A DNA stretch of 64,000 bases from a virus (taxonomy: Duplodnaviria > Heunggongvirae > Uroviricota > Caudoviricetes), in IMG/VR virus record IMGVR_UViG_3300033463_000003; one strand, written 5' to 3'. The notes below the pieces were generated by a model. The model had not been told where the DNA came from. It ran no database searches and saw only the letters and a list, made by a program, of their open reading frames with translations. A program made the translations under genes and the position numbers. How positions within the stretch are numbered: position 1 is the stretch's first letter; the number at the start of each line of letters is the position of its first letter. Of the stretch, positions 2,489 through 63,996 are shown piece by piece.

Positions 2489-5400
2489 ATGAGTCTACAA
2501 ATTTGGCTTCCATTAAATAATGATATAAAAAATTATGGCACAGACCATAATGTTGTTTTTAGCAATAGAGTTGAAGCAACATCTATTTCTGGTGGTAAAG
2601 TAACTAAAAACTGCTACTATTTTACTCCTGAGGGGCATGACCGTGGTACTGACTATGGCCTATATACTACAAACTCTGGTTCTTTAGCCACATATTTTAA
2701 TGATCACTCATGGACAATGGCTTTTTGAATTAAAACAGGTGTTAGTATACAAAGTGATGTTTTTTGTATTAGTGGTCCAGACTCAGAAAAAAACTATGAA
2801 ACAAGATGCTATATTGCTGGCGAAGCTGATGTTGGTAGATTTGTTTTTGAAGTTAAAGATGGAAACACATATAGGTACCCTAGCACAGATGATATAGCAG
2901 TTAATGACAGTAATTGGCACCATATTACTATTGCATATGACTATAATAAAAATAAATTTTATTGCTACTGTGATGGAGTTTTAAAAACGGCTCCTCAACT
3001 TACTAATGGTACATTTAATAAAAATATTACTGGCATAAGCATTGGTAGAAATTATGCTGGTAATATATGGTTTGATGGTTTCATTAATGATTTCAGAATT
3101 TATGACCATGCTTTGTCATCAGAAGAAGTACTAGAATTATCACAAGGTTTGGTTGCTCATTATTCTTTTAACTGGGAAGAGTTTTATCAACCAATTGAAT
3201 ATATTGAAAGTACTGGTACTCAATATATTGATACTGATATTAAATTTAATACAGGAAATACTTATGAATTAAGATCAAAAATAGAGTTTGATAATGTCAC
3301 TGAACCAAACCAAATTATTGGCTATGATGGTCACGCTGGAAATGGTATTGGAACATCCACTAACACTTGATGGTTAGATAATGCTGCTAGTGTTTCTTGT
3401 AGTACCAATACTATTTATGATATAATTTGGACTCGTAGTGATACTAGCTGAACAAGAACAATAAATGGAACAAGCTATTCTGGAAGTGCTCAAATTGGCT
3501 CACAAACATATAATATCCCAATTTATTTATTTGCAACACGTAAACCAGATGCAACACCAGCATATAGTATTGGCTATTGGTGCTATATGAAAATGTATTA
3601 TTGCAAACTTTATGAAAATAATACTATTGTTCGTGATTTTATTCCTGTAATAAGAAAAATAGACCACAAACCAGGACTTTTTGACTTAGTAGAAAATAAA
3701 TTCTATGGCAATGATGGTACTGGTGAATTTAAATACCCAAATTCTAATGCTGAATATGAATTTTTAGAATATATTGAATCAGGTGACCACCAATATATAG
3801 ATACTGGCTGGATACCTAATTTTGATGTTAGTTGAAAAGTTGAAGCAGTTGTAAGCATTCCAGATAATAGATATAGATATTGTATTGTATCAAATGCTAA
3901 TGCACAGACTGCTACTGCTAATGAAAAAGAAGTCAGCCTAGAAATTAATGATGCTAATAATAGTTCTGAACCAAATGTAATTTGTGATGGCCGCCCAAGA
4001 TTCTACATAAATGGTGGTGATACTCAAGGATATGGTATTGCTCTGGTTCCACCAGGTGGCTCGTCAACAATAACTAACAATAAAAAAGCTAATGTTGAGT
4101 ACTCATATAACGCATCTACACATGATTGCTATGTAAGTTACCGTAATCTTGATGGAAGTGGTGAAAGTTCAAATAGTGTATCTAAAACATTTTCTGGGCA
4201 GTCACAATCTAGCACAATGCTTTTATTCATAGATAGAAAAAAACGTTATGATGTTTTTAATCATTCTCTTAGAATATATAGCTGTAAAATAACAGAAAAC
4301 GGTAAAGTAGTTAGAGACTATGTTCCAGCAAGAAGAAAATCAGATGATAAAACTGGAATGTTTGATATGGTACATAGTGAATTTGCTAATTCAACTAGTG
4401 GTTTTACTACGCCTACTGATTACACTACACCGACTGACTATAAGTTTATTGACTATATTGAAACAAGTGGTACACAATATATTGATACCGGTTTTAATCC
4501 ATATAATAAAAACACTACTGTTGAATTAGATGCCCAAGTATTAAATGTTACTAGCTCACAAAATTTATATCAATTTTTTGGTTGTTTTGACCAAATTGTT
4601 CGTTTCCATATTGGCCTTTATAATAATGGAGCTGGTTTCCACCCAGGCATAGGAAGTGCATATGATACTAATGCTTATAACTATGATACTGACAGACATA
4701 AATTTAGTCTAATTAGTAACAGTGAAGAAAGAGCATTTTATGTAGATGGCATTTCAAAATGAACAACAACCAATACTGCTACACTACCAAATCTAAATGT
4801 GTATATTGGCGCTGGTAATTGAAGCGGAACTGCAACAAGTGATACTCACTGAGGCTATACAGGCAGTTCTAGAATTTATGGCTGTAAAATTTGGAATGAT
4901 ACTTCATTAGCTCATAATTTTATTCCAGCAATTAGGCTTAATGATAATAAACCTGGATTATATGATTTAGTTAGTAATAGCTTTAAACCAAACCTAGGTG
5001 ATGGTGAATTTGATTCACCAGCTTTATATCACCCAGTAGATTATATTGCTTCAACTGGAACACAATATATTGATACTGGATATGCTTATAATAATAGTAA
5101 TGATAATGCTAGAATTGTTGTTGATTGGTCTGCTATTGACCTATCAAATGGAAATTACTTTGAATATCGTGTTGGTGGAGCTCAAAGTGACAGTCGTTCA
5201 ATGGTTTTATATGGTACACCATCAACATCAACAGAATTAAGATTAGGTGTTGGATCAGATGTTGGTAGTACTTCAGGTGATATTGCACTTAAAGATGCCA
5301 ACAACAATGACATTAAAATACTTAAAGGCACAAGATATTTAATTGATGTTACAGCAAAAAATAAAAATATTGGTGGAACATTAAATGGAAGTACAATTAG

Positions 5401-7612
5401 CGGCACATATCCTGGAACTGTTGGTAGCACAGCAAATTATTATATATTTGCTAATAATGAAAATGGCACTGTTGGATATAATGGTAGAGTAAAAATTTAT
5501 AAATATCAATTATATGATAATGGCACTTTAGTAAGAGACTTTATTCCTGTAGTTAGAATATATGATAATAAGCCCGGCCTTTGGGAAAAAGTAGAAGGTA
5601 AATTTTATACTAACCAAGGAACAGGGGAATTTATTTGGAGTAGCTCTATTGATAGTCATGGTACAACTAGTAATGGTACATTATATGTAGATAGACAAAA
5701 GTTAACTGCTAGCTATCTTGGCTATGGAAACTGGCGCTCTGGGCTTGCTTGTAGAAATAAATATAGTAAATGCTCTACTGGTTTTACTGTCTATGATACT
5801 GTTAGTCATGTTATGGCCAACTTATGTACATCAAATAATTTTAGTGATAATAATAATGAGCTTTGAAAGTCTGGTTATGGAATTTATGCTGGTGGCAGCT
5901 CTCAGTGGATATATTATGCTGATTTTGGTGAGTGTCAGACAATAAATGATAGCAATAATAACCCAATTTCATATCAAGCTGGTGATAGACTTAAAATTAT
6001 ACTAAATAATAACAAAGTCTATTACTACAAAAATGATCAAATAATACGTACAGTAAATAATACACATGGAGATCTTTATCCTGTGCTTTTATGCACCACT
6101 GATGCTATAAATAATTACTTAGATATTGCTTTAACAACACTTCCAAGCCCAGTAGATGTAATAAAACCAATAAAAGATAATAGTGGCTATAATAATGATA
6201 TATCTGCATTTACCCCAGATTTAACAACAAGTAATGATACAGCTTTAGGAAATCAAAGCTTAGTATTTGATGAAACGAACTACCTTAAAAGTAGCTTAGA
6301 TAGCTCATTTATTAAAGATAAGCTTACAACAAATATTTTAGTTTATAAAAATGATTGAAGCAATAATGTTAGTGAACAAATTATAGCTTGCTCAAAAGAT
6401 AATACAATTGGAGCAACCTATAATGGTTGAAGCTTTGCTATTGGTTCCAATTCAGCAAGTGAAACAGGAACTGGCACATATTTAAAATTTGTAGTTGATG
6501 CAGGAGCTGCTCATGCACAAGCAGCAAAACTAGACATATCTAGCTTAACATCAGGCTGGCATATGTTTACAGGAACATATGATTCTTTTATGGGCACAGG
6601 CAACACAACAGGAAATTCATATGTTAAATTATATATTGATGGAAATCTTGCCGATACCGATATAATATCAAGTGCTCCAGCAATGCCAATTAACTATGTT
6701 TCATCACATAATGTAACTATTGGTGCTAGATATAATAGAACTAATTATACAGTTACTGATTACTTTAATGGAAAAATTGCAGATGTTAAAATTTGGGCAA
6801 CAACTTTATCAGCAGAAGATATTAAAGACCTATATGAAACAAAAGCAAAGATATATAATAACAATATTTTTGCTGCTAATAATATAAAAGCTATTGACCA
6901 AGAGGCTATTAAAACATTTGTACCTGAACGTATAGCTGGTCATGGTAGTGGTGTAGTACTTAGTAAGCTTGGTGAAAACTGATATGAAGTGCTTAAACCT
7001 GCTAACCTTAAATTTGGTGGCATTCAAATTCCTTGAAGATACCCTGATAGAGATGACGGAACACCTATTAACTTTACTGCTGGCCATTATTATAAGCTAA
7101 GTTTTGAAACATTACAAAGCTATAGCAGCGATTACTCAGAGATATGTAAATATATTCGTGGACACTCTAATGGTTTTACTACTATTGGAATTTATATTGA
7201 TGGACAAAAAGCTATAAATGATCTTTGGCATGTTACTAATAACTTAAACCCAACAGGTATTAATTTAAAACTTGAACGTTTATATGCAAGATGGAAACAC
7301 TATGATGTATACTTATTATATAATGCTAATTCGCCGGATGGTAATAATGGTCTATATATTCAACCAGAAAGAGGTAATACAGAAGCTCCTGCAAGTAATA
7401 CCCAGTATAGAAATATAGAACTTACTGACTATGGAACTACTGAGCCAATATTTAAAGAGTCAGAAGTAGCAACAATAACTTCTGAGCTTAAAGTAGATAA
7501 TGTTGCTTCACTACAATGAATTCAAACAACTACAGAAGGTTCACCAAATAAAAATTCAGTATATGTTGGTAAGAATAGAACATTAGTAGCCGCAGATATA
7601 AAAGAAATATAA
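2489..7612 (+). CDS. Large LamG/concanavalin-like repeat virion protein, 1707 aa, many TGA-Trp
   Basis: Seven track fragments (2489, 3113, 3587, 4217, 5201, 6083, 6563) are in one frame, each broken at TGA; LamG motifs WTMAF(W)IK, WHHITI, INDFRIYDHAL, IADVKIWATTL; ends TAA 7610. Confidence 0.85.
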
Positions 7613-7619
7613 ACTAAGC

Positions 7620-8012
7620 TGACGACTATATATAAAGAAAGCTGGGAACAAAAAAATTCCTGGCTTTTTATTTTATTCACTTTCCTCCCACTAACTATAT
7701 ATAAAAAGAAGAGAAAAGTATTTGTTAGTTAATATATATAATGGAGCTATATAAAGGAAAGAGTATATATTAAAAAAAGAAAGAGTAATTAGATATATAG
7801 TAATTATAAGTAAAGAAAGCATACTATATATAAGAGGGGAAGAGGTGAACTTATATATAGGAAACACAGGGGAAGCTATATATAAGAAGAATAAGGGAAA
7901 AATGACTTACAGAATAGAGCTTAAAATGCTATATAGGAAGAATAGGCAAAAGCAGGAAAAAAGGCCTACTTACTATATATAAGTAAGTAGAGGCTAGGGT
8001 GGCTTTTTTGGC
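7620..8012. repeat. Purine-rich non-coding tract with about 8-10 copies of CTATATATAAG-like motif
   Basis: Copies seen directly (e.g. 7625, 7695, 7824, 7876, 7973); strong strand asymmetry. Confidence 0.7.
7640..7669 (+). terminator. Rho-independent terminator
   Basis: GCTGGGAA...TTCCTGGC hairpin followed by T-run after adhesin gene. Confidence 0.6.
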
Positions 8013-8554
8013 GAAGTTACAGATTTTTTCGTTTTTGTTTTTTGGAATATTAGCTAAAATAAATGAAGGATGTAAAAAGTCAGTGGCGGAGCTATACCCT
8101 CTTTAAGCCTTCAACACCTAGTATATGCTCGTTAAAGCTGCTGTTCACATATCACCATTACCTTGCTTTAGGGCTGGGTAATTTTTTTTATAAGCTGAAT
8201 TTTTTTATAATAAGCCAGGAAGGAAAGCTAAACCCACTAAGCTTTTGTTCACTAGAGCCTGGGCCAGAAAAGTTTTTGTCCTTAGAGTCCCAAGAAAAAT
8301 TCTACAAGCTTAGGACAATTAGCTGCTGGCCCACCACTCGCTTCTATATATATATGTATTCTATCTATATGCATTATCCTATATATACTTACTACTACTA
8401 AAAATATATTCAACTTATTTTTTTATATAGTCTCGGGAAGAAAAACTATTTGACCTTCTTCTGCTAAATTATACGAGGCCCAGGGATAAAAAGCTAGACA
8501 CAACATCTTACGGCCAGGTCTAGGAGAGATAGCTTTTTTGTCCAGTGAGCTCCA

Positions 8555-47406: not shown

Positions 47407-48680
47407 TGTCTGAATTATTATTAGAGTTTAAAGAATTTTTTAATAAAATTACTGCAGAAACTGGACGGAATTATAAAATTTCAGTTTTAGAGGAATATTG
47501 CAAATCTCAAGAGATTTTATATCTTTTAGATTTTATTTATAATCCTTATATTATTACAGGAATTTCTGAGAAAAAACTAAATAGAGTTATTGATAAAAAG
47601 CTACCAAGATTTATTGCTTTTTCTCTAAAAGAAGTCTTAGAATATCTTAAACATTATAATACAGGTCGAGATCAGGATATTGCAACAGTTCAAGATTATA
47701 GAGATAGCGTAGTAGCAGAAGAGGACAAGCCTTTATATAATAGAATAATTACTAAAAATATTCAATTAGGAATTGATGCTAAAACCATTAATAAAGTAAT
47801 TCCAGGGCTAATTCCAGAATTCAATGTTCAATTAAGCAATAAATATTTTGATAAACCAGAAATAGTTGAAGGTAAAGAATTTGCTATTACAACTAAAATT
47901 GACGGGTCAAGAATTATTGCTATGAAAGATAGTGGTAAAGTTAGTTTCTGGACAAGGCAGGGACAGCCTTATGAAGGACTTGTTGATTTAGAAGAAGAGC
48001 TAAAAATAATGCCATTTGACGATTTTATTTTAGATGGTGAAATTATTGCAAAAGAAACAACTAAAGAAGATACGTATAAAAATACTATGAAATTAAGTCG
48101 CACAAAAGACTTAGAAAAACATGGCTTAAAAATGTTAGTATTTGATTACATGCCAATTGCTAATTTTAAGGCTCAAAAATGTCCAATAGCTTATCATACT
48201 CGTAGGGCAGGCTTATCTCTAATGTTTGATTTAGGCTTAAAATTTGATTATTTTGAGTTATTACCATTACTCTATGTTGGTACTGATACCTCTATGATTA
48301 CTAAAATCTTAGAAGAACAGGTAGCTAAAGGTGAAGAAGGTATTATGATTAATATTTGGGAAGCCCCATATGAATTTAAGAGAACAAATAATCTACTTAA
48401 AGTTAAAAAATTCCAAGATACTGAAGTTGAGATTATCGGCTTTGAAGAAGGAACAAATAAATTAGCTGGAACACTTGGCGCATTTGTGTGTAAATATAAA
48501 GACAATGAGGTTAGAGTTGGCTCTGGTTTAACAGATGCTGATAGAGCTTATTTTTGGGCTCATAGAGAAGAGTTTTTAGGTAGGCTTATTACAGTTAAGT
48601 ATTTTGAAACTTCTATTGATTCTAAGACAGGTTTAGAAAGTCTTAGGTTCCCAATTTTTATGCGAGTTAAGGAAGACTAA
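47406..48680 (+). CDS. ATP-dependent DNA ligase
   Basis: KIDGSR, LDGE, VFD, EEGIM, LLKVK, SLRFP. Confidence 0.92.
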   Translation: MSELLLEFKEFFNKITAETGRNYKISVLEEYCKSQEILYLLDFIYNPYIITGISEKKLNRVIDKKLPRFIAFSLKEVLEYLKHYNTGRDQDIATVQDYRDSVVAEEDKPLYNRIITKNIQLGIDAKTINKVIPGLIPEFNVQLSNKYFDKPEIVEGKEFAITTKIDGSRIIAMKDSGKVSFWTRQGQPYEGLVDLEEELKIMPFDDFILDGEIIAKETTKEDTYKNTMKLSRTKDLEKHGLKMLVFDYMPIANFKAQKCPIAYHTRRAGLSLMFDLGLKFDYFELLPLLYVGTDTSMITKILEEQVAKGEEGIMINIWEAPYEFKRTNNLLKVKKFQDTEVEIIGFEEGTNKLAGTLGAFVCKYKDNEVRVGSGLTDADRAYFWAHREEFLGRLITVKYFETSIDSKTGLESLRFPIFMRVKED

Positions 48681-50980: not shown

Positions 50981-52474
50981 ATGTATAAAGTAAAAAAAGA
51001 ATTTGATCAACTTAAACCAATTATTTATCCTGAGACAACAAATCAAGTAGATAATTCTCAACTTCAACTTGGAGTTGATAATAGACTTTACAGAAGCTTG
51101 TTTCGGATTTTTGATGCTTTCTGGATTTATGCTAAGAAAGAATTATTTTTAGTTGGCGGTTGTGTCAGAGACTTACTTTTAAATAGACAGCCAAAAGATT
51201 ATGACTTAACAACAAATGCAACTCCAGAAGAAGTTAAAAAGATTTGTATTGCTTTAGGTCTTAAAACTTTTGATTCAGGAATTAAGCATGGAACTATTAC
51301 TATTTTAGATGAGTTTTATGGCCAAAGTTATGAAATTACGACTTACAGAGTCGATGGCAAATATACAGATGGAAGGCATCCAGATTCAGTTGAGTTTGTA
51401 AGCAGCTTAAAAGAAGATTTAAAGCGTCGTGATTTCACAATTAATTCATTTGCTTATGATTTGCTTAAACAAGAATTATTGGCCCTTGATGAGTCTTATT
51501 TAAAAGATTTAGAATTTGGAATTATTAGAACAGTTGGGGACCCGGCTGAGAGATATGAAGAAGATGCTTTAAGAATGCTCAGAGCAATTAGATTTAGTGC
51601 TCAGCTTAATTTTAGTATTGAAAAGTATACTTATTCTGCAATTAAAATGTGCGCTCCTCTTTTAGCTAAAGTTTCTAAAGAAAGAATTAGAGACGAATTA
51701 ACAAAAATTATTATGTCAGATACCCCTGAAGTATTAGAGCTTGCTGCAATTACAAGACTTGAGGATTATTTTGGCAATTTTGAGCACTCATATTTAGCTT
51801 GTATGCTAGATTGTGAGCACCAAAATCCATGGCACTATACAGATGTTTTCCACCATACTTTAGATGTAGTAAAAAGAGTCCCTAAGATTTTTGAAGTTCG
51901 CTGGGCTGCTTTACTTCACGATATTGGAAAGCCTTATGTTAAAAAGCTTAAAGAAGGAACAGTAGATCAGTATGTTTATTATGGTCATCCTGAAAAGTCT
52001 GCTGAAATTGCACTTACTATTATGGATACTTTAAAATTTTCAAATGATCAAAAAGATTTAATTTATAAATTTATTAAATACCATGATGACTCTTTAGATA
52101 CTGTTAAAAATTCTACTTTCAAAAGAGTTGTTACAGATATTGGAAAAGAAAACTTCCCACTTTTTATGAAGCTTAGACTTGCTGATGCAATGTCTCATAA
52201 ATTAAGCCAAGGAACTATTTATGCAGTTGATGCAGTAAGTAATGTTTATGACAGGTTTAAAGAGATTTTAGATAATGATGAAGCAATGACTATTAAGGAT
52301 CTTGCTATAAATGGAAATGATATCCTTGCTGATGGTTTCTTAGAAGGTCCTGAAATTGGAGACTGCTTAAAGTGGATGCTAAATCTTGTTTTAGAGCACC
52401 CAGAATATAATAATAGAGAAAAACTATTAGAATTATTAGAAATTTTTAAAGAAATGTCATTTCAGTCAAGTTAA
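50981..52474 (+). CDS. cca: CCA-adding tRNA nucleotidyltransferase with HD domain
   Basis: VGGCVRD, DYD, RRDFTIN, EDALRMLRAIRF, ERI, LLHDIGKP. Confidence 0.92.
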   Translation: MYKVKKEFDQLKPIIYPETTNQVDNSQLQLGVDNRLYRSLFRIFDAFWIYAKKELFLVGGCVRDLLLNRQPKDYDLTTNATPEEVKKICIALGLKTFDSGIKHGTITILDEFYGQSYEITTYRVDGKYTDGRHPDSVEFVSSLKEDLKRRDFTINSFAYDLLKQELLALDESYLKDLEFGIIRTVGDPAERYEEDALRMLRAIRFSAQLNFSIEKYTYSAIKMCAPLLAKVSKERIRDELTKIIMSDTPEVLELAAITRLEDYFGNFEHSYLACMLDCEHQNPWHYTDVFHHTLDVVKRVPKIFEVRWAALLHDIGKPYVKKLKEGTVDQYVYYGHPEKSAEIALTIMDTLKFSNDQKDLIYKFIKYHDDSLDTVKNSTFKRVVTDIGKENFPLFMKLRLADAMSHKLSQGTIYAVDAVSNVYDRFKEILDNDEAMTIKDLAINGNDILADGFLEGPEIGDCLKWMLNLVLEHPEYNNREKLLELLEIFKEMSFQSS

Positions 52475-54233: not shown

Positions 54234-56452
54234 ATGCAAGAAAATAATGTTAAAGTTCATTCTGAATTGTCTATCCCATTTGGCACGCTTAGCTGGATAG
54301 CTTGGGTAGTTTTTATGATTATGGATTATGGCTGTCATATGGACTGGATTACAAATGCTAATAATGCAGTTAAAGCTGGCGGGCATTTCTGGACCTGGTT
54401 TCCATTCTGGCTTCCATTTGCTTTATTTGGAGTGCTTTTAATCTTTTCAGCAATTGTATTTGTAATTGCTATTACTATAGATAATAATTAGGAGAGATTT
54501 ATGAGTAGATTTAAAGTTGGACAAAAAGTTTATTTTTATCAAATTACTGGAGAATATTTAGGAACAATTATTGAAGGTACTATTAAAAAAATAGTTAAAG
54601 ACTTAGGTACCGGAGAAGTAACCTATTCTTTAAATATTCCATCTCATCCTCTTTGGCTTTGGAATTATAATGCAGAGCATTTAGTAGAGCTTAAGGAAGA
54701 AAATCTCTATTCAAGCAGAAAAAAGATTGAAAAAGAATATAAAGATGAAATTGTTTATAATACTTTAAAAGAAAAAATAGATAGATTACAATCTGTTTTA
54801 TTTGATGTAAAAACTGAGCTTCAAAAAGATATCCATAAAGATTTTACTGGAATGACTTTAAATATTACGGGTGAAAAAGCTTTTAGTACTATTTGTCTTA
54901 ATTCAGAAGATGTAGTTATTTCAGGTCTTGGCTCTGTTAAAGAAAAAGTAGAAGAGCTTGAAAAAGAAATTAAAGCTATTAAGAAAAAAATTAAACCAAA
55001 AACTAAAAAGCCAGTAGTCAAAAAAGAAGAAAAAACTGAAGAAGAAATTACTTTAGATAAAGCTGAGGAAACAAAATAATGCAAGATATTGTTATTAATT
55101 TTTCAATGCTTGAAAAAACTCTATCAAAAGTAGTTGAAAAAAGCTATGGTCATATGGGAGGAGCTTATTTAGTTATTGAAGAAATTAGAATTCAAACTGA
55201 AGAAATTGACCCAGCTATAAAAGATAATTTTAATTTTGATTATATTATCGTTGGCAGATACGGCGTAGAAGATAAAAATAAAGATATTCATTTTGAGTTA
55301 TTTGCAAACTCAGCCTGGGATTATAATTTCTTAGCAGGTTATTTTGCAAGAATTATTGATGAAAAAGACGAAAATGAGTAGAGTAAAAGCACCTAATACA
55401 GATCATTCATACTTTAGAGCTGCAGAGAGATGTGGCTGGAGCCGAAAAAAAGCTCGTGAAATGATGAAAGAAGCTCAAAGAAGGGGAAAAGCTTATGCTA
55501 ATATAAAAAACCCCGAAATAAGCAAATTTATAGCTATTAAACAAGGCAATCAGAGTAGACGAGTTAAATATTATATGGGCTATGTTTTTGTTTTTGCTTC
55601 TACTAGTACAAGATGTATAACTGTGTATCCACTTCCTAAGGGATTACTTGAGGAAAATGAAGAAAATGTTTCTAATAATGTATTATAAATACAGAGGTAG
55701 TTGTTATGGATACTTTAGAAATATTTAAGAATGAATTTTTTATTAGTTTGCAGCGAGAACTTGAGGCCAAGCAAGAATATCTAGCTGGGGTCTTGAACCC
55801 AAATGAATATTTAATTTGTAAAGTAGAAATTGATTTGTTGCAAAAAGTAATAGATAGATATGTTCATTATTTAGAGGAAAAGAGACATGTCAGAGAAGAA
55901 ACCAGTAATAGCAAGTAAAGATAAATTAGCTGATTTAATTATTATTTTAGAAAATGATTTACCTAAACTTCAGTATGATGAAAGTTTCCAATATCATGAA
56001 CCTTCTTATTATAATTATGTAACCTATTATGAAGAACTAGTTGAGACTTTATTAGGTCTTGGTGGAAAAGATAGCTTAAATTTATTTGGAGCTTATTTAG
56101 TTGGATTATTAGCTTATCAAGTAATGGAATTAAAAACTCCACTTTATATGGTAGTTCAAATGATTATTGATGAGCTTAAAAATAAAATTAATTGGTTTGA
56201 AGGAACAACTACTAAAAAACCTGCAGAAGCTGAAGAAAAAGAAGATGATAAAAAATTTGATGCCTAGGAGTAGATATGCCAAAACAACATTTTGAAGATA
56301 ATTATTATTTTATTACAGATGACTTAGGAAATGAAATTTTTAGAGTTTCTTTAGATGAATCAGTTGGCGGAGACCAGGTAGTAATCTCAACTCCAAATGA
56401 AGTATATGCAGGCCCAATTTCACTTATTTCATTTAGTTCAGAGCTAAAATAA
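54234..56452 (+). other. Operon of hypothetical genes (54234-54491 membrane, 54501-55079, 55079-55381, 55374-55688, 55706-55918, 55887-56267, 56276-56452)
   Basis: Coupled ORFs with RBSs. Confidence 0.7.
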
Positions 56453-56486
56453 TGTATAATATATTGTAGATTTACGAATCTACCTA

Positions 56487-56777
56487 AGGGGCGTAAGTTA
56501 TGTAGTAGACCCGCGGTCTTCAACCTCGAAAGTTGCTAACTGACGAAACTGGTGCCTTATGGTGGAAACATTATAAGTGTAGGTGATGATATCGGTGAAC
56601 CCTGTCAAATGGGAATACCGAGGGAATGAGAAATCAGCCCGTAGAGAGTAGATAATCACCCAGCTAAACAGAAATGCATGCTGAAGATGTACTCCAGACC
56701 ACAAAACGGAAGTGTAGTGAAAGCTATAGTGGTAAGCAAAACCGGGAAACAGCGTGCAAGCCGCTGCACCCCTGCCA
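56487..56777 (+). tRNA. tRNA-Trp(UCA), UGA-decoding, split by an intron (exons 56487-56520 and 56737-56777)
   Basis: Spliced 75 nt: acceptor AGGGGCG/CACCCCT, discriminator G, CCA; anticodon arm CGGT-CTTCAAA-ACCG; T arm CAGCG-TGCAAGC-CGCTG; body resembles bacterial tRNA-Trp. Confidence 0.85.
56521..56736 (+). mobile_element. Compact group I intron, 216 nt, no ORF
   Basis: P3 GGTGAT/ATCACC, P4 TCGGT/ACCGA, R GTAGAGAGTA, S AAGATGTACTCC (P7 GAGTA/TACTC), exon ends in U, intron ends in G. Confidence 0.85.
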
Positions 56778-56783
56778 TCTAAT

Positions 56784-56815
56784 GCAGCACAAAATAATAC
56801 ATTGTGCTGCTTTTT
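56784..56815 (+). terminator. Terminator after tRNA-Trp
   Basis: GCAGCACAA...TTGTGCTGC plus TTTTT. Confidence 0.8.
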
Positions 56816-56849
56816 ATTTGCTAAATTAAAGTGAAAGGATATTTTGTTT

Positions 56850-56999
56850 ATGCAGAAAAAAGAAGTTAAGTTAGAAGTTAGAGTTACACAAGATACATAT
56901 GAAAAGCTTAAGGCTTTAGCAATAGCAGATGAGAGCTCTTGTAGTGCTGTAGTTAGAAAAGCTATTAAAAAGCTTTTAGAAGGCTTGGAGGCAAAGTAG
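56850..56999 (+). CDS. Ribbon-helix-helix (CopG-like) protein, 49 aa
   Basis: LEVRV....YEKLKALA......SAVVRKAI; late motif and RBS. Confidence 0.7.
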   Translation: MQKKEVKLEVRVTQDTYEKLKALAIADESSCSAVVRKAIKKLLEGLEAK

Positions 57000-57000
57000 T

Positions 57001-57144
57001 ATGAGTAAGTTCTTAAAAGTGTTAGAGTCAATATTTGTTGGTATTCTTGCTATTCTCGGGGCTATTTGTATCTCACCTTTAATTATTATTTATTTGCTTA
57101 TTCATTTACCAGTAATAGCAATTTCAGACATTTGGAGTGAGTAA
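57001..57144 (+). CDS. 47-aa hydrophobic peptide
   Basis: RBS GGAGG, operonic. Confidence 0.55.
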   Translation: MSKFLKVLESIFVGILAILGAICISPLIIIYLLIHLPVIAISDIWSE

Positions 57145-63179: not shown

Positions 63180-63219
63180 AAAACTATTTACATTTAGAAA
63201 AAACAATGTATAATAATAT

Positions 63220-63298: not shown

Positions 63299-63373
63299 CC
63301 TCCCGTCGTCTAAAGGTCAGGACGCTCCCCTTATAAGAGAGAAATCGTGGTTCAAGTCCATGCAGGAGGACCA
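63299..63373 (+). tRNA. tRNA with UAU anticodon (Ile by anticodon)
   Basis: Cloverleaf, loop CTTATAA, T-loop TTCAAGT, CCA; one mismatch each in acceptor and anticodon stems. Confidence 0.7.
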
Positions 63374-63470
63374 TTAAAAAATATATTTACATTTTCAAAA
63401 AAATAATGTATAATATAAAAAGCATAAGAAAATATATGCTAAATTAAATGTTCGCGATAATGTGAACAAT

Positions 63471-63529
63471 AGAGCCTATACTTATTTCTGAACAAATAAG
63501 GATCATGAAGAAAAAGCTAGTTAGGCCAA
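63471..63529 (+). ncRNA. Y-RNA-like motif, copy 3
   Basis: AGAGCCTATACTTATTTC...TAGTTAGGCCAA. Confidence 0.55.
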
Positions 63530-63595
63530 AACATCTATGTTAAGTAAGTATTCTGAGGTATAGTGAAATCTTACAGACAAATAGGAGAAAAAGCG

Positions 63596-63685
63596 ATGAA
63601 AAGAAATTGGTCTGTCAAACTAATGCAACAATTACGCGGTTATCATGGCGGATATTCTTTTTCATACGCAGGTTTTCTCAAATAG
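63596..63685 (+). CDS. Possible 29-aa peptide
   Basis: RBS AGGAG; terminator at about 63715-63743. Confidence 0.3.
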   Translation: MKRNWSVKLMQQLRGYHGGYSFSYAGFLK

Positions 63686-63751
63686 ACTAGAATAATATAT
63701 AGACTAACTAAATTGGGCAGCTTGCGTATGTGAGCTGCCTTTTATTTATCT

Positions 63752-63828
63752 TGGGGCGTGAACGAATGGTAGAGTTAACAGGCTTTGAACCTGTGTTTGT
63801 GGAGGTTCGAGTCCTCCCGCCCTAGCCA
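63752..63828 (+). tRNA. tRNA-Gln(UUG)
   Basis: ACAGG-CTTTGAA-CCTGT, TTCGAGT, CCA. Confidence 0.9.
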
Positions 63829-63832
63829 ATAT

Positions 63833-63907
63833 TGAGATGTAGGCAAGTGGTAAGCCGCCTGTCTCTGAAACAGGTTATCCTTGGTCCGAACCCAAGCATC
63901 TCAACCA
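63833..63907 (+). tRNA. tRNA-Gln(CUG)
   Basis: CCTGT-CTCTGAA-ACAGG, TGAGATG/CATCTCA, CCA. Confidence 0.88.
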
Positions 63908-63909
63908 AT

Positions 63910-63996
63910 GCCCATATGATGGAATTTAGTAGACATAAGGGTCTTAAAAACCCTTGGCCGAGTGTCGTGTCAGTGCAAGTCTGACTATGGGTACCA
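63910..63996 (+). tRNA. tRNA-Leu(UAA)
   Basis: AGGGT-CTTAAAA-ACCCT, long variable arm, CCA. Confidence 0.9.

Follow-up and report, generated by a model that had tools for sequence, protein, structure and literature searches.

Introduction

We take the group I introns of subgroup IC3 that interrupt the anticodon loops of transfer RNA (tRNA) genes to include those of cyanobacterial and plastid tRNA-Leu(UAA) ('Leu.3Ug'), cyanobacterial tRNA-fMet ('fMet.2Ug'), Azoarcus tRNA-Ile(CAU) and Agrobacterium tRNA-Arg(CCU). Here we analyse a phage locus that resembles them. It lies in a 64,000-nt stretch of DNA from a virus of the Caudoviricetes (IMG/VR record IMGVR_UViG_3300033463_000003), which we call the window throughout, and consists of a candidate opal-suppressor tRNA(UCA) gene split inside its anticodon by a 216-nt insert. 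We argue that the insert is a group I intron of the bacterial tRNA type, and that the gene probably serves a phage that reads TGA as tryptophan.

A survey of bacterial and archaeal genomes distinguished 21 types of bacterial tRNA intron; no UCA or Trp type is mentioned in the available portions of its main text (Williams 2020, bioRxiv 10.1101/2020.01.27.920355). The tRNA-fMet intron of Synechocystis is described as carrying the PD-(D/E)XK homing endonuclease I-Ssp6803I (Bonocora and Shub 2001, cited in PMC3984707). As for phages, a review of 2014 stated that all their group I introns then known lay in protein genes, despite the many tRNA genes that phages possess (PMC3984707). Unclassified 'enigmatic' introns in tRNAs of the Lak megaphages were later presented as the first phage tRNA introns (Devoto 2019, PMC6784885). 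The likeness between those introns and our locus lies in their occurrence in phage tRNA genes and in gut phages with recoded stop codons. They differ in that they were compared with Rfam with no class reported, that one of them may encode a tRNA, and that they were not reported as group I introns or as residing in a suppressor. Surveys of recoded phages describe reassignment of TGA or TAG with no detectable suppressor tRNA, for which host tRNAs, incomplete genomes or 'extremely divergent' suppressors are blamed; they mention the missing suppressors and not introns in them (Yutin 2021, PMC7886860; PMC12386605; PMC13037316). In the literature we found no account of a phage suppressor tRNA interrupted by a group I intron.

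A tRNA(UCA) gene split in its anticodon

Two tRNA halves on the + strand (56487-56777, 291 nt in all) flank the 216-nt insert. Exon 1 (56487-56520, 34 nt) provides the 5' strand of the acceptor stem, the D arm, the 5' strand of the anticodon stem and C32, U33 and U34. Exon 2 (56737-56777, + strand, 38 nt plus an encoded CCA) provides C35 and A36, the 3' strand of the anticodon stem, the T arm, the 3' strand of the acceptor stem and G73. When the insert (56521-56736) is taken out, a 75-nt tRNA results, with the anticodon UCA, an A1-U72 pair and G73; in these respects our analysis confirms the initial annotation of this region, which had been made from the sequence alone. In the spliced tRNA six of the seven acceptor-stem pairs are formed, C6.A67 being mismatched, and the D, anticodon and T stems comprise 3, 4 and 5 bp. 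The anticodon loop CUUCAAA has 7 nt and acquires its UCA anticodon only if 56520 is joined to 56737. In sequence this junction is ambiguous by 3 nt, CAA opening both the intron and exon 2, and only the cut between positions 34 and 35 places a U at -1 and a G at the intron end. Exon 1 is supported by covariation in the acceptor stem and by ARAGORN calls on spliced homologs, and exon 2 by double-sided changes in four of the five T-stem pairs.

In bacteria, G73 and A1-U72 are identity elements of tRNA-Trp. Both occur in every member of the phage family described below, and also in the tRNA-Trp(CCA) encoded by G001, a relative of the window with 146.5 kb of sequence. From these identity elements and from the use of TGA for tryptophan we expect the tRNA(UCA) to be charged with Trp.

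Some features of the tRNA body are peculiar to the subfamily formed by the window, L001, L158 and L156. The elbow of the tRNA is non-canonical there (56500-56507 and 56755-56761 in the window): GG is absent from the D loop, and the T loop has a G where U55 is almost universal. These two changes may offset each other; the other subfamily is canonical at both places. In addition G27 (56513) opposes G43 (56745), which leaves an anticodon stem of 4 bp, where the other subfamily has a G-C pair. A 2026 paper ties 4-bp anticodon stems of tRNA-Trp to the reading of UGA (PMC13092985). A minus-strand open reading frame (ORF) of 177 aa (56498-57031, TTG start) spans the whole element; it contains stops in every homolog, and we dismissed it as an artefact of ORF listing.

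The split gene is conserved as a family with compensatory changes

Homologs were gathered from IMG/VR and JGI metagenomes with the core motif of the insert. Ten metagenomic loci carry the same split tRNA gene, eight of them full-length and two cut at the 5' side, and all are interrupted at the same place, so that the survey of relatives proposed in the initial annotation gave a positive answer. The window-like subfamily includes L001 (identical to L162), L158 and the 5'-cut L156. A second subfamily consists of L032, L037, L157, L160, L161 and the 5'-cut L159; its tRNA body is closer to the canonical form, since the D loop contains GG and the T loop reads UUCGAAU, and its CCA is not encoded. 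The introns of the family measure 216-217 or 203 nt. A CCA-adding enzyme with an HD domain is encoded in the window at 50981-52474, where the split tRNA itself encodes CCA; the tRNAs of the second subfamily do not.

One structure, comprising the tRNA stems and the intron helices P1-P9, was scored on an alignment of the eight full-length copies. In this alignment 94.3% of the cells are paired (36-45% in slid controls) and 20 pairs have changed on both sides; for four of five pairing measures, none of 500 shuffles reached as high a value. Compensatory changes are found in the T stem, the acceptor stem, P2, P5, P8, P9 and the inner P9 hairpin. The split tRNA is not a chance observation. A search of IMG/VR for an intronless allele with a joined anticodon arm returned only chance matches and one unrelated selenocysteine tRNA (tRNA-SeC), and no relatives were found when sought via the nearby CCA-adding enzyme.

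The insert belongs to the bacterial group I tRNA introns

For comparison with bacteria, the core motif of the window with one degenerate base was searched in bacterial genomes and gave 120 places, 102 of which have the bacterial version of the motif; most of these then show a matching J8/7-P7' element. In its intron mode ARAGORN recognizes 66 of the places as tRNAs split by an intron of 188-302 nt. Of 18 bacterial tRNA-intron loci, nine reach the gathering score of the Rfam group I model, RF00028, and the other nine are missed. As ARAGORN finds split tRNAs in 66 places and RF00028 accepts nine of 18, we consider the comparators to be accepted group I tRNA introns.

A profile hidden Markov model built from 81 bacterial tRNA introns matches 56506-56744 with an E-value of 5.9e-16 (nhmmer), and this is the sole significant match in the window. 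The comparators had been gathered with a motif derived from the window itself, and as a control for this ascertainment the shared search motif was masked; the 3' flank then still matches with E 2.3e-8 and the 5' flank with E 3.8e-5. The reverse profile, made from the phage introns, matches bacterial introns down to 1.6e-13. In a comparison of 25 introns, 12 from phages and 13 from bacteria, P3 is complementary in 6/6 pairs throughout, with at least 10 sequence versions, five of them in the phage lineage. P7, bulged A included, is likewise formed (6/6) in all 25. At one P7 pair the bacterial introns have C-G where the phage lineage has G-C, which amounts to a compensatory swap. These likenesses, together with the terminal G, identify the insert by sequence as a group I intron of the bacterial tRNA (IC3) type and bear out the group I core, including P3, P4 and P7, that had been recognized in it earlier.

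The intron also shares its layout with the bacterial and plastid IC3 introns: a size of about 190-290 nt, a P2-P9 core with near-identical J6/7-P7 and J8/7-P7' elements, a candidate guide just 5' of P2, U at -1 and a terminal G. With the tRNA-Leu(UAA) intron it has in common loop position 3 (CUU/...). It departs from this group in its host gene, a phage opal-suppressor tRNA(UCA), in the change of the P7 pair from C-G to G-C, in a U-U mismatch in its putative P1 and in being missed by RF00028. The close bacterial comparators L229 and L195 are initiator-type tRNA(CAU) genes split as CU|CAUAA, and their introns start and end much like that of the window.

Standard searches pass over the gene

ARAGORN run on the window reports only four tRNAs, at 63299-63996, and leaves the split gene unreported; its transfer-messenger RNA (tmRNA) search finds nothing in the window. 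Rfam gives neither a tRNA nor a group I match at the site, even at E<=10, and blastn of the region against GenBank phages gives no match. The suspicion that standard scans could miss this gene was thus justified for both ARAGORN and Rfam. Two checks suggested in the initial annotation were less favourable. The search of the insert with RF00028 drew a blank at E<=10. ARAGORN, given spliced sequences, calls tRNA(tca) in seven of the eight family members and refuses the window's copy alone; its intron mode misses the gene as well. The sole stem difference between the window copy and those of L001 and L158 is C6.A67, where both have U6-A67, and this mismatch is probably the cause of the failure. 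With regard to RF00028, our comparison indicates that the model is only half-sensitive to bacterial tRNA introns. Williams (2020) notes that its seed lacks bacterial sequences (bioRxiv 10.1101/2020.01.27.920355).

The phage reads TGA as tryptophan

The window is AT-rich phage DNA (32% GC) with genes for a CCA-adding enzyme, NrdD and PhoH and a tRNA array. Many of its + strand genes require TGA as a sense codon: the gene at 2489-7612 has 13 TGA codons, and TGA is also present in nrdD and phoH. Every gene listed in the tally of TGA codons ends in TAA. Where the window has TGA, the orthologs in G001 have TGA in five cases, TGG in two and another codon in two; where G001 has TGA, the window has TGG in six cases, TGA in five and another codon in one. 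TGA/TGG exchanges between orthologs thus total eight, against three with other codons. Since these exchanges favour TGG, we conclude that TGA means tryptophan in this phage, and the earlier suggestion of TGA-containing genes in need of a decoder is substantiated. ORF cover rises when TGA is taken as sense; at L032 it goes from 0.41 to 0.91, and the second-subfamily loci are strongly recoded. When NrdD was aligned to solved structures, the TGA codon fell in a variable stretch where the residue is not readable.

G001 carries 38 ordinary tRNAs, among them the Trp(CCA) mentioned above. No intron-free tRNA(UCA), the case that had been put forward as one that would make the split gene dispensable, is present in its 146.5 kb; the split tRNA is the only one with UCA there. 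The element is 89% identical between the window and G001, compared with 67-84% for shared and flanking genes, and its position relative to genes differs. Two other places in the tRNA array of the G001 contig are unusual: at 47549-47660 a 112-nt sequence with a long internal insert weakly matches the tRNA model (31.9 bits), and at 48045-48118 ARAGORN assigns a tRNA a two-base anticodon.

Structure of the intron

The ORF-less, IC3-like intron (56521-56736, + strand, 216 nt) is defined by the profile match and by covariation, and all of its parts lie on the + strand. P2 (56556-56577) is a hairpin with a GAAA loop in which four of nine pairs have changed on both sides. The 5' strand of P3 (56582-56587) pairs with its 3' strand (56655-56660), which closes the P3/P7 pseudoknot. 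P4 (56592-56597 with 56616-56621) encloses P5 and has 5-6 of 6 pairs in all 25 introns; in P5 (56600-56602 with 56611-56613) two pairs have changed on both sides. P6 (56622-56640), again with a GAAA loop, keeps its stem while the length of the hairpin varies among homologs.

The 5' strand of P7 (56644-56650) contains the bulged A56645; G56644, A56645 and the pair G56646-C56694 are invariant. We take G56646-C56694 to be the guanosine-binding pair, an assignment made after the Azoarcus structure. The P8 hairpin (56661-56683) has one pair changed on both sides between the subfamilies, and the J8/7 segment AAGAUG precedes the 3' strand of P7 (56690-56695). In P9 (56698-56702 with 56729-56733) three of five pairs, and in its inner hairpin P9a (56714-56727, GAAA loop) four of five, have changed on both sides. 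The intron ends with the terminal G, or omega G, at 56736, directly before the 3' splice site. This G is kept in all eight family members and in the endonuclease-lineage relatives described below, and U-1 is invariant in the family. The family introns of 203-217 nt contain no conserved open frame and, in particular, no homing endonuclease ORF. A placement of P3 around GUCAAAU, by analogy with Azoarcus, was discarded; those bases form the P5 loop, and the second subfamily does not conserve them.

Proposed recognition of the splice sites

The initial annotation had found no canonical P1. A candidate for P1 can now be put forward: a putative internal guide, CUGGUG (56549-56554), sits just 5' of P2, with a single unpaired C in between. 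Its 3' half would serve exon 1 (P1) and its 5' half the CAA of either the intron start or exon 2 (P10). The 5' strand of P1 (56518-56523) would consist of the exon bases C32, U33 and U34 and the first three intron bases (+1 to +3, CAA), the 5' splice site following 56520. In this pairing G56554 meets C32, U56553 stands opposite U33, and G56552 forms the U.G wobble with U34 (U56520) at the splice site. G56551 and U56550 can pair with the first two intron bases or, later, with C35 and A36 in P10. The fact that one guide can pair with either, first in P1 and then in P10, would explain why CAA is found at both the intron start and the exon 2 start. The local minimum free energy fold of 56513-56560 contains U34.G56552, C+1-G and A+2-U. 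For P10, the exon 2 CAA could pair with UG of the guide in the window subfamily or with UUG in the other; these columns do not covary.

We assign P1 and P10 provisionally, from position and pairing. The guide is likewise directly 5' of P2 in close relatives from bacteria and in L175, an Azoarcus-like locus. UUGGAG occupies the homologous place in L050, L091, L053, L087, L116 and L062, and UGGAG in L049. The guide of the window family is one A-to-U change away from UUGGAG, and the resulting U-U opposition is kept in both subfamilies and in L152. Because the intron helices have gone on changing compensatorily within the very family that bears this mismatch, we take the intron to be active.

Two further observations concern the same region. 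The first 8-9 bases of the intron resemble the start of exon 2 and could base-pair with the strand that exon 1 contributes to the anticodon stem. The resulting exon 1/intron hairpin, with the splice site in its loop, is predicted at -12.7 kcal/mol in L032 (8746-8762) and is weaker in the window (56513-56529). As another candidate guide we considered AGACC, 3' of P7, for exon GGUCU, and rejected it as it covaries with the 3' strand of P9 (L160, L157).

Transcription signals

An extended -10-like motif, TGTATAAT, is situated at 56453-56460 on the + strand, 26 nt upstream of the tRNA 5' end. This putative promoter is an exact copy of a motif that is enriched in the window (25 copies versus 6.5 expected) and that also precedes tRNA units of the tRNA array at 63207 and 63407. 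Downstream, a 9-bp stem at 56784-56810 is followed by a T run, together forming an intrinsic terminator (56784-56819, + strand; -13.4 kcal/mol, z -3.06); the terminator claimed for the gene is therefore real by these measures. A consensus scan skipped it because its loop has 9 nt. L158 and L156 have a non-homologous hairpin and T run after the gene. With these signals, transcription of the split tRNA gene would probably start at an extended -10 promoter and stop at a terminator that are both its own.

The other claims made about the flanks survive in part. The leader hairpin between promoter and tRNA is present (56466-56483, + strand). It is weak (-5.4 kcal/mol, z -1.4), and a role for it is doubtful because by eye it is absent upstream of L001. 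With respect to the two overlapping promoter motifs that had been proposed, TGTATAAT is exact and enriched, whereas the 'late' motif GCTAAATTA has no exact copy before the split tRNA; its exact copy, at 56820, precedes the following gene. GCTAAATTA occurs 14 times in the window (2.6 expected), 13 times on the + strand, at sites that include 205, 38670, 40236, 56820 and 60878, several of them just upstream of genes with in-frame TGA. It is probably a class of phage promoter.

A mobile intron lineage

The loci retrieved with the J8/7-P7' motif include nine in which a tRNA(UCA) is interrupted at this site by an intron of the same lineage. In two of them, L050 and L091, an ORF of 153-154 aa between the 5' splice site and the guide belongs to the PD-(D/E)XK endonuclease family PF11645 (E 2e-17). 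The same frame is visible by eye in L053, L087, L116 and L062; L049 is ORF-less. These relatives, which represent other TGA-recoded phages of the gut, and the window have in common the site CUU|CAA, the swapped P7 pair, the P2/P3/P4/P9 layout and a tRNA with A1-U72 and G73. The window differs from them by the absence of an ORF, by its candidate guide CUGGUG and by a variable region of 4 nt. L049, L050, L053, L087 and L091 have an extra arm in the variable region of exon 2, with a loop like the anticodon loop of tRNA-Trp CCA, which the window lacks. Since relatives of the same lineage carry an endonuclease, the window intron can be viewed as an ORF-less member of a mobile lineage specialised on tRNA(UCA).

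The Synechocystis fMet system is comparable in having an IC3 intron in an anticodon loop, and the endonuclease of the phage relatives is of the same fold family as the Synechocystis enzyme. The likeness of the endonucleases is at the level of the fold family, and the systems differ in the tRNA and, by one nucleotide, in the loop position. L091 contains a second split gene, at about 7300-8190: a tRNA-Leu(UAA) with a 777-nt group I intron, which has a P7 of the bacterial type and a long ORF with in-frame TGA.

Discussion

We consider it probable, at about 0.72, that the locus is a functional opal-suppressor tRNA gene, belonging to a large phage with TGA recoded to tryptophan and interrupted between positions 34 and 35 by an ORF-less IC3 intron that likely splices constitutively and is neutral to the phage. 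In such a gene the intron would fold into its P3-P9 core, and exon CUU would pair with the guide to form P1, with the U.G wobble at the splice site. Free guanosine would attack the 5' splice site; the UG or UUG of the guide would then hold the exon 2 CAA in P10, the terminal G would be displaced and the exons joined. RNase P and 3' trimming would produce the 75-nt tRNA(UCA). The host tryptophanyl-tRNA synthetase would charge it by way of G73 and A1-U72, and in-frame UGA would be read as Trp. A plausible history is acquisition by homing followed by loss of the endonuclease, the window intron being a streamlined descendant.

Several observations weigh against this interpretation. P1 is short and contains the U33-U mismatch, and all its columns are invariant and lend no covariation support. 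RF00028 is silent at E<=10 in the window and in three related contigs. The window's tRNA copy combines C6.A67, a D loop with no GG and G instead of U at T-loop position 55 with rejection by ARAGORN. Finally, the absence of regulation is an argument from parsimony.

The best of the alternatives, which we regard as unlikely, is the one favoured in the initial annotation, a code switch gated by splicing. Slow or conditional splicing, dependent on the level of guanosine or Mg, on the weak P1 or on competing hairpins, would time the appearance of tRNA(UCA) and with it the translation of TGA-containing genes. If this is true, the genetic code would change in the course of infection under the control of an RNA-catalysed step. 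Every homolog found has the intron, and no intronless allele was seen in IMG/VR; the P1 mismatch has been kept in both subfamilies and L152; the hairpin of exon 1 and the intron 5' end, at -12.7 kcal/mol in L032, mimics an anticodon stem in which the splice site would be concealed; and TGA-rich genes tend to follow the separate enriched motif GCTAAATTA. Each of the first three features has a neutral explanation as well. Bacterial tRNA genes often contain group I introns with no ORF, and we know of no regulatory role for these. The endonuclease of the relatives accounts for the intron by mobility, the competing hairpin does not covary, and the split gene shares TGTATAAT with two ordinary tRNA units. 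Two of the genes with TGA, nrdD and phoH, would not be late genes if T4-like phages are a guide, so that there is no obvious need for a late gate. We do not favour the switch; constitutive self-splicing explains the locus more simply.

It is somewhat less probable still that the gene is decaying, that is, that the intron no longer splices or the window tRNA is impaired, and that another tRNA of phage or host decodes TGA. The peculiarities listed above (the P1 mismatch, C6.A67, the odd D and T loops, the ARAGORN rejection and the silence of RF00028) would fit decay, and a second UCA tRNA could lie outside the 64,000 nt, the part of the genome examined. However, compensatory changes in P2, P5, P8, P9, P9a and the tRNA stems within the lineage that bears the mismatch imply continued selection on both structures. 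The P7 guanosine-binding pair, the bulged A, U-1 and the terminal G are all intact, and the element is better conserved than most aligned flanking genes. G001 has no alternative UCA tRNA in its 146.5 kb, and RF00028 is equally silent on half of the genuine tRNA introns from bacteria on which it was run.

Very improbable, finally, is a reading with no group I splicing, in which the 291-nt RNA stays whole as a tRNA- or tmRNA-like molecule, a long insert in place of the anticodon loop being the tmRNA topology, or in which a protein endonuclease removes the insert at 37/38, as the 3-nt ambiguity of the CAA repeat would permit: the tmRNA-like RNA is contradicted by G3-C70 in place of G3.U70, by the lack of an ARAGORN tmRNA call or a conserved tag frame (every frame has at least one stop, and at least two in all homologs but the window) and by full-length homology to self-splicing introns with the catalytic core kept, and the archaeal-type intron at 37/38 was dropped once the group I core had been established, bulge-helix-bulge splicing machinery not having been described in bacteria to our knowledge.

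If the gene is, as we think, a working suppressor with a self-splicing intron, an intron in the anticodon loop offers a concrete and checkable cause of 'missing' suppressor tRNAs in recoded phages, given that ARAGORN and the Rfam models for tRNA and for group I introns all pass over this gene. The element also runs counter to the 2014 statement that phage group I introns lie in protein genes (PMC3984707). With a profile made from these sequences, suppressors that are now hidden in phage contigs of gut and other metagenomes would be recovered. Whether the phage tolerates or uses the intron is a testable question, for in this family a mobile lineage of introns has specialised on the one tRNA that is indispensable to a recoded phage.

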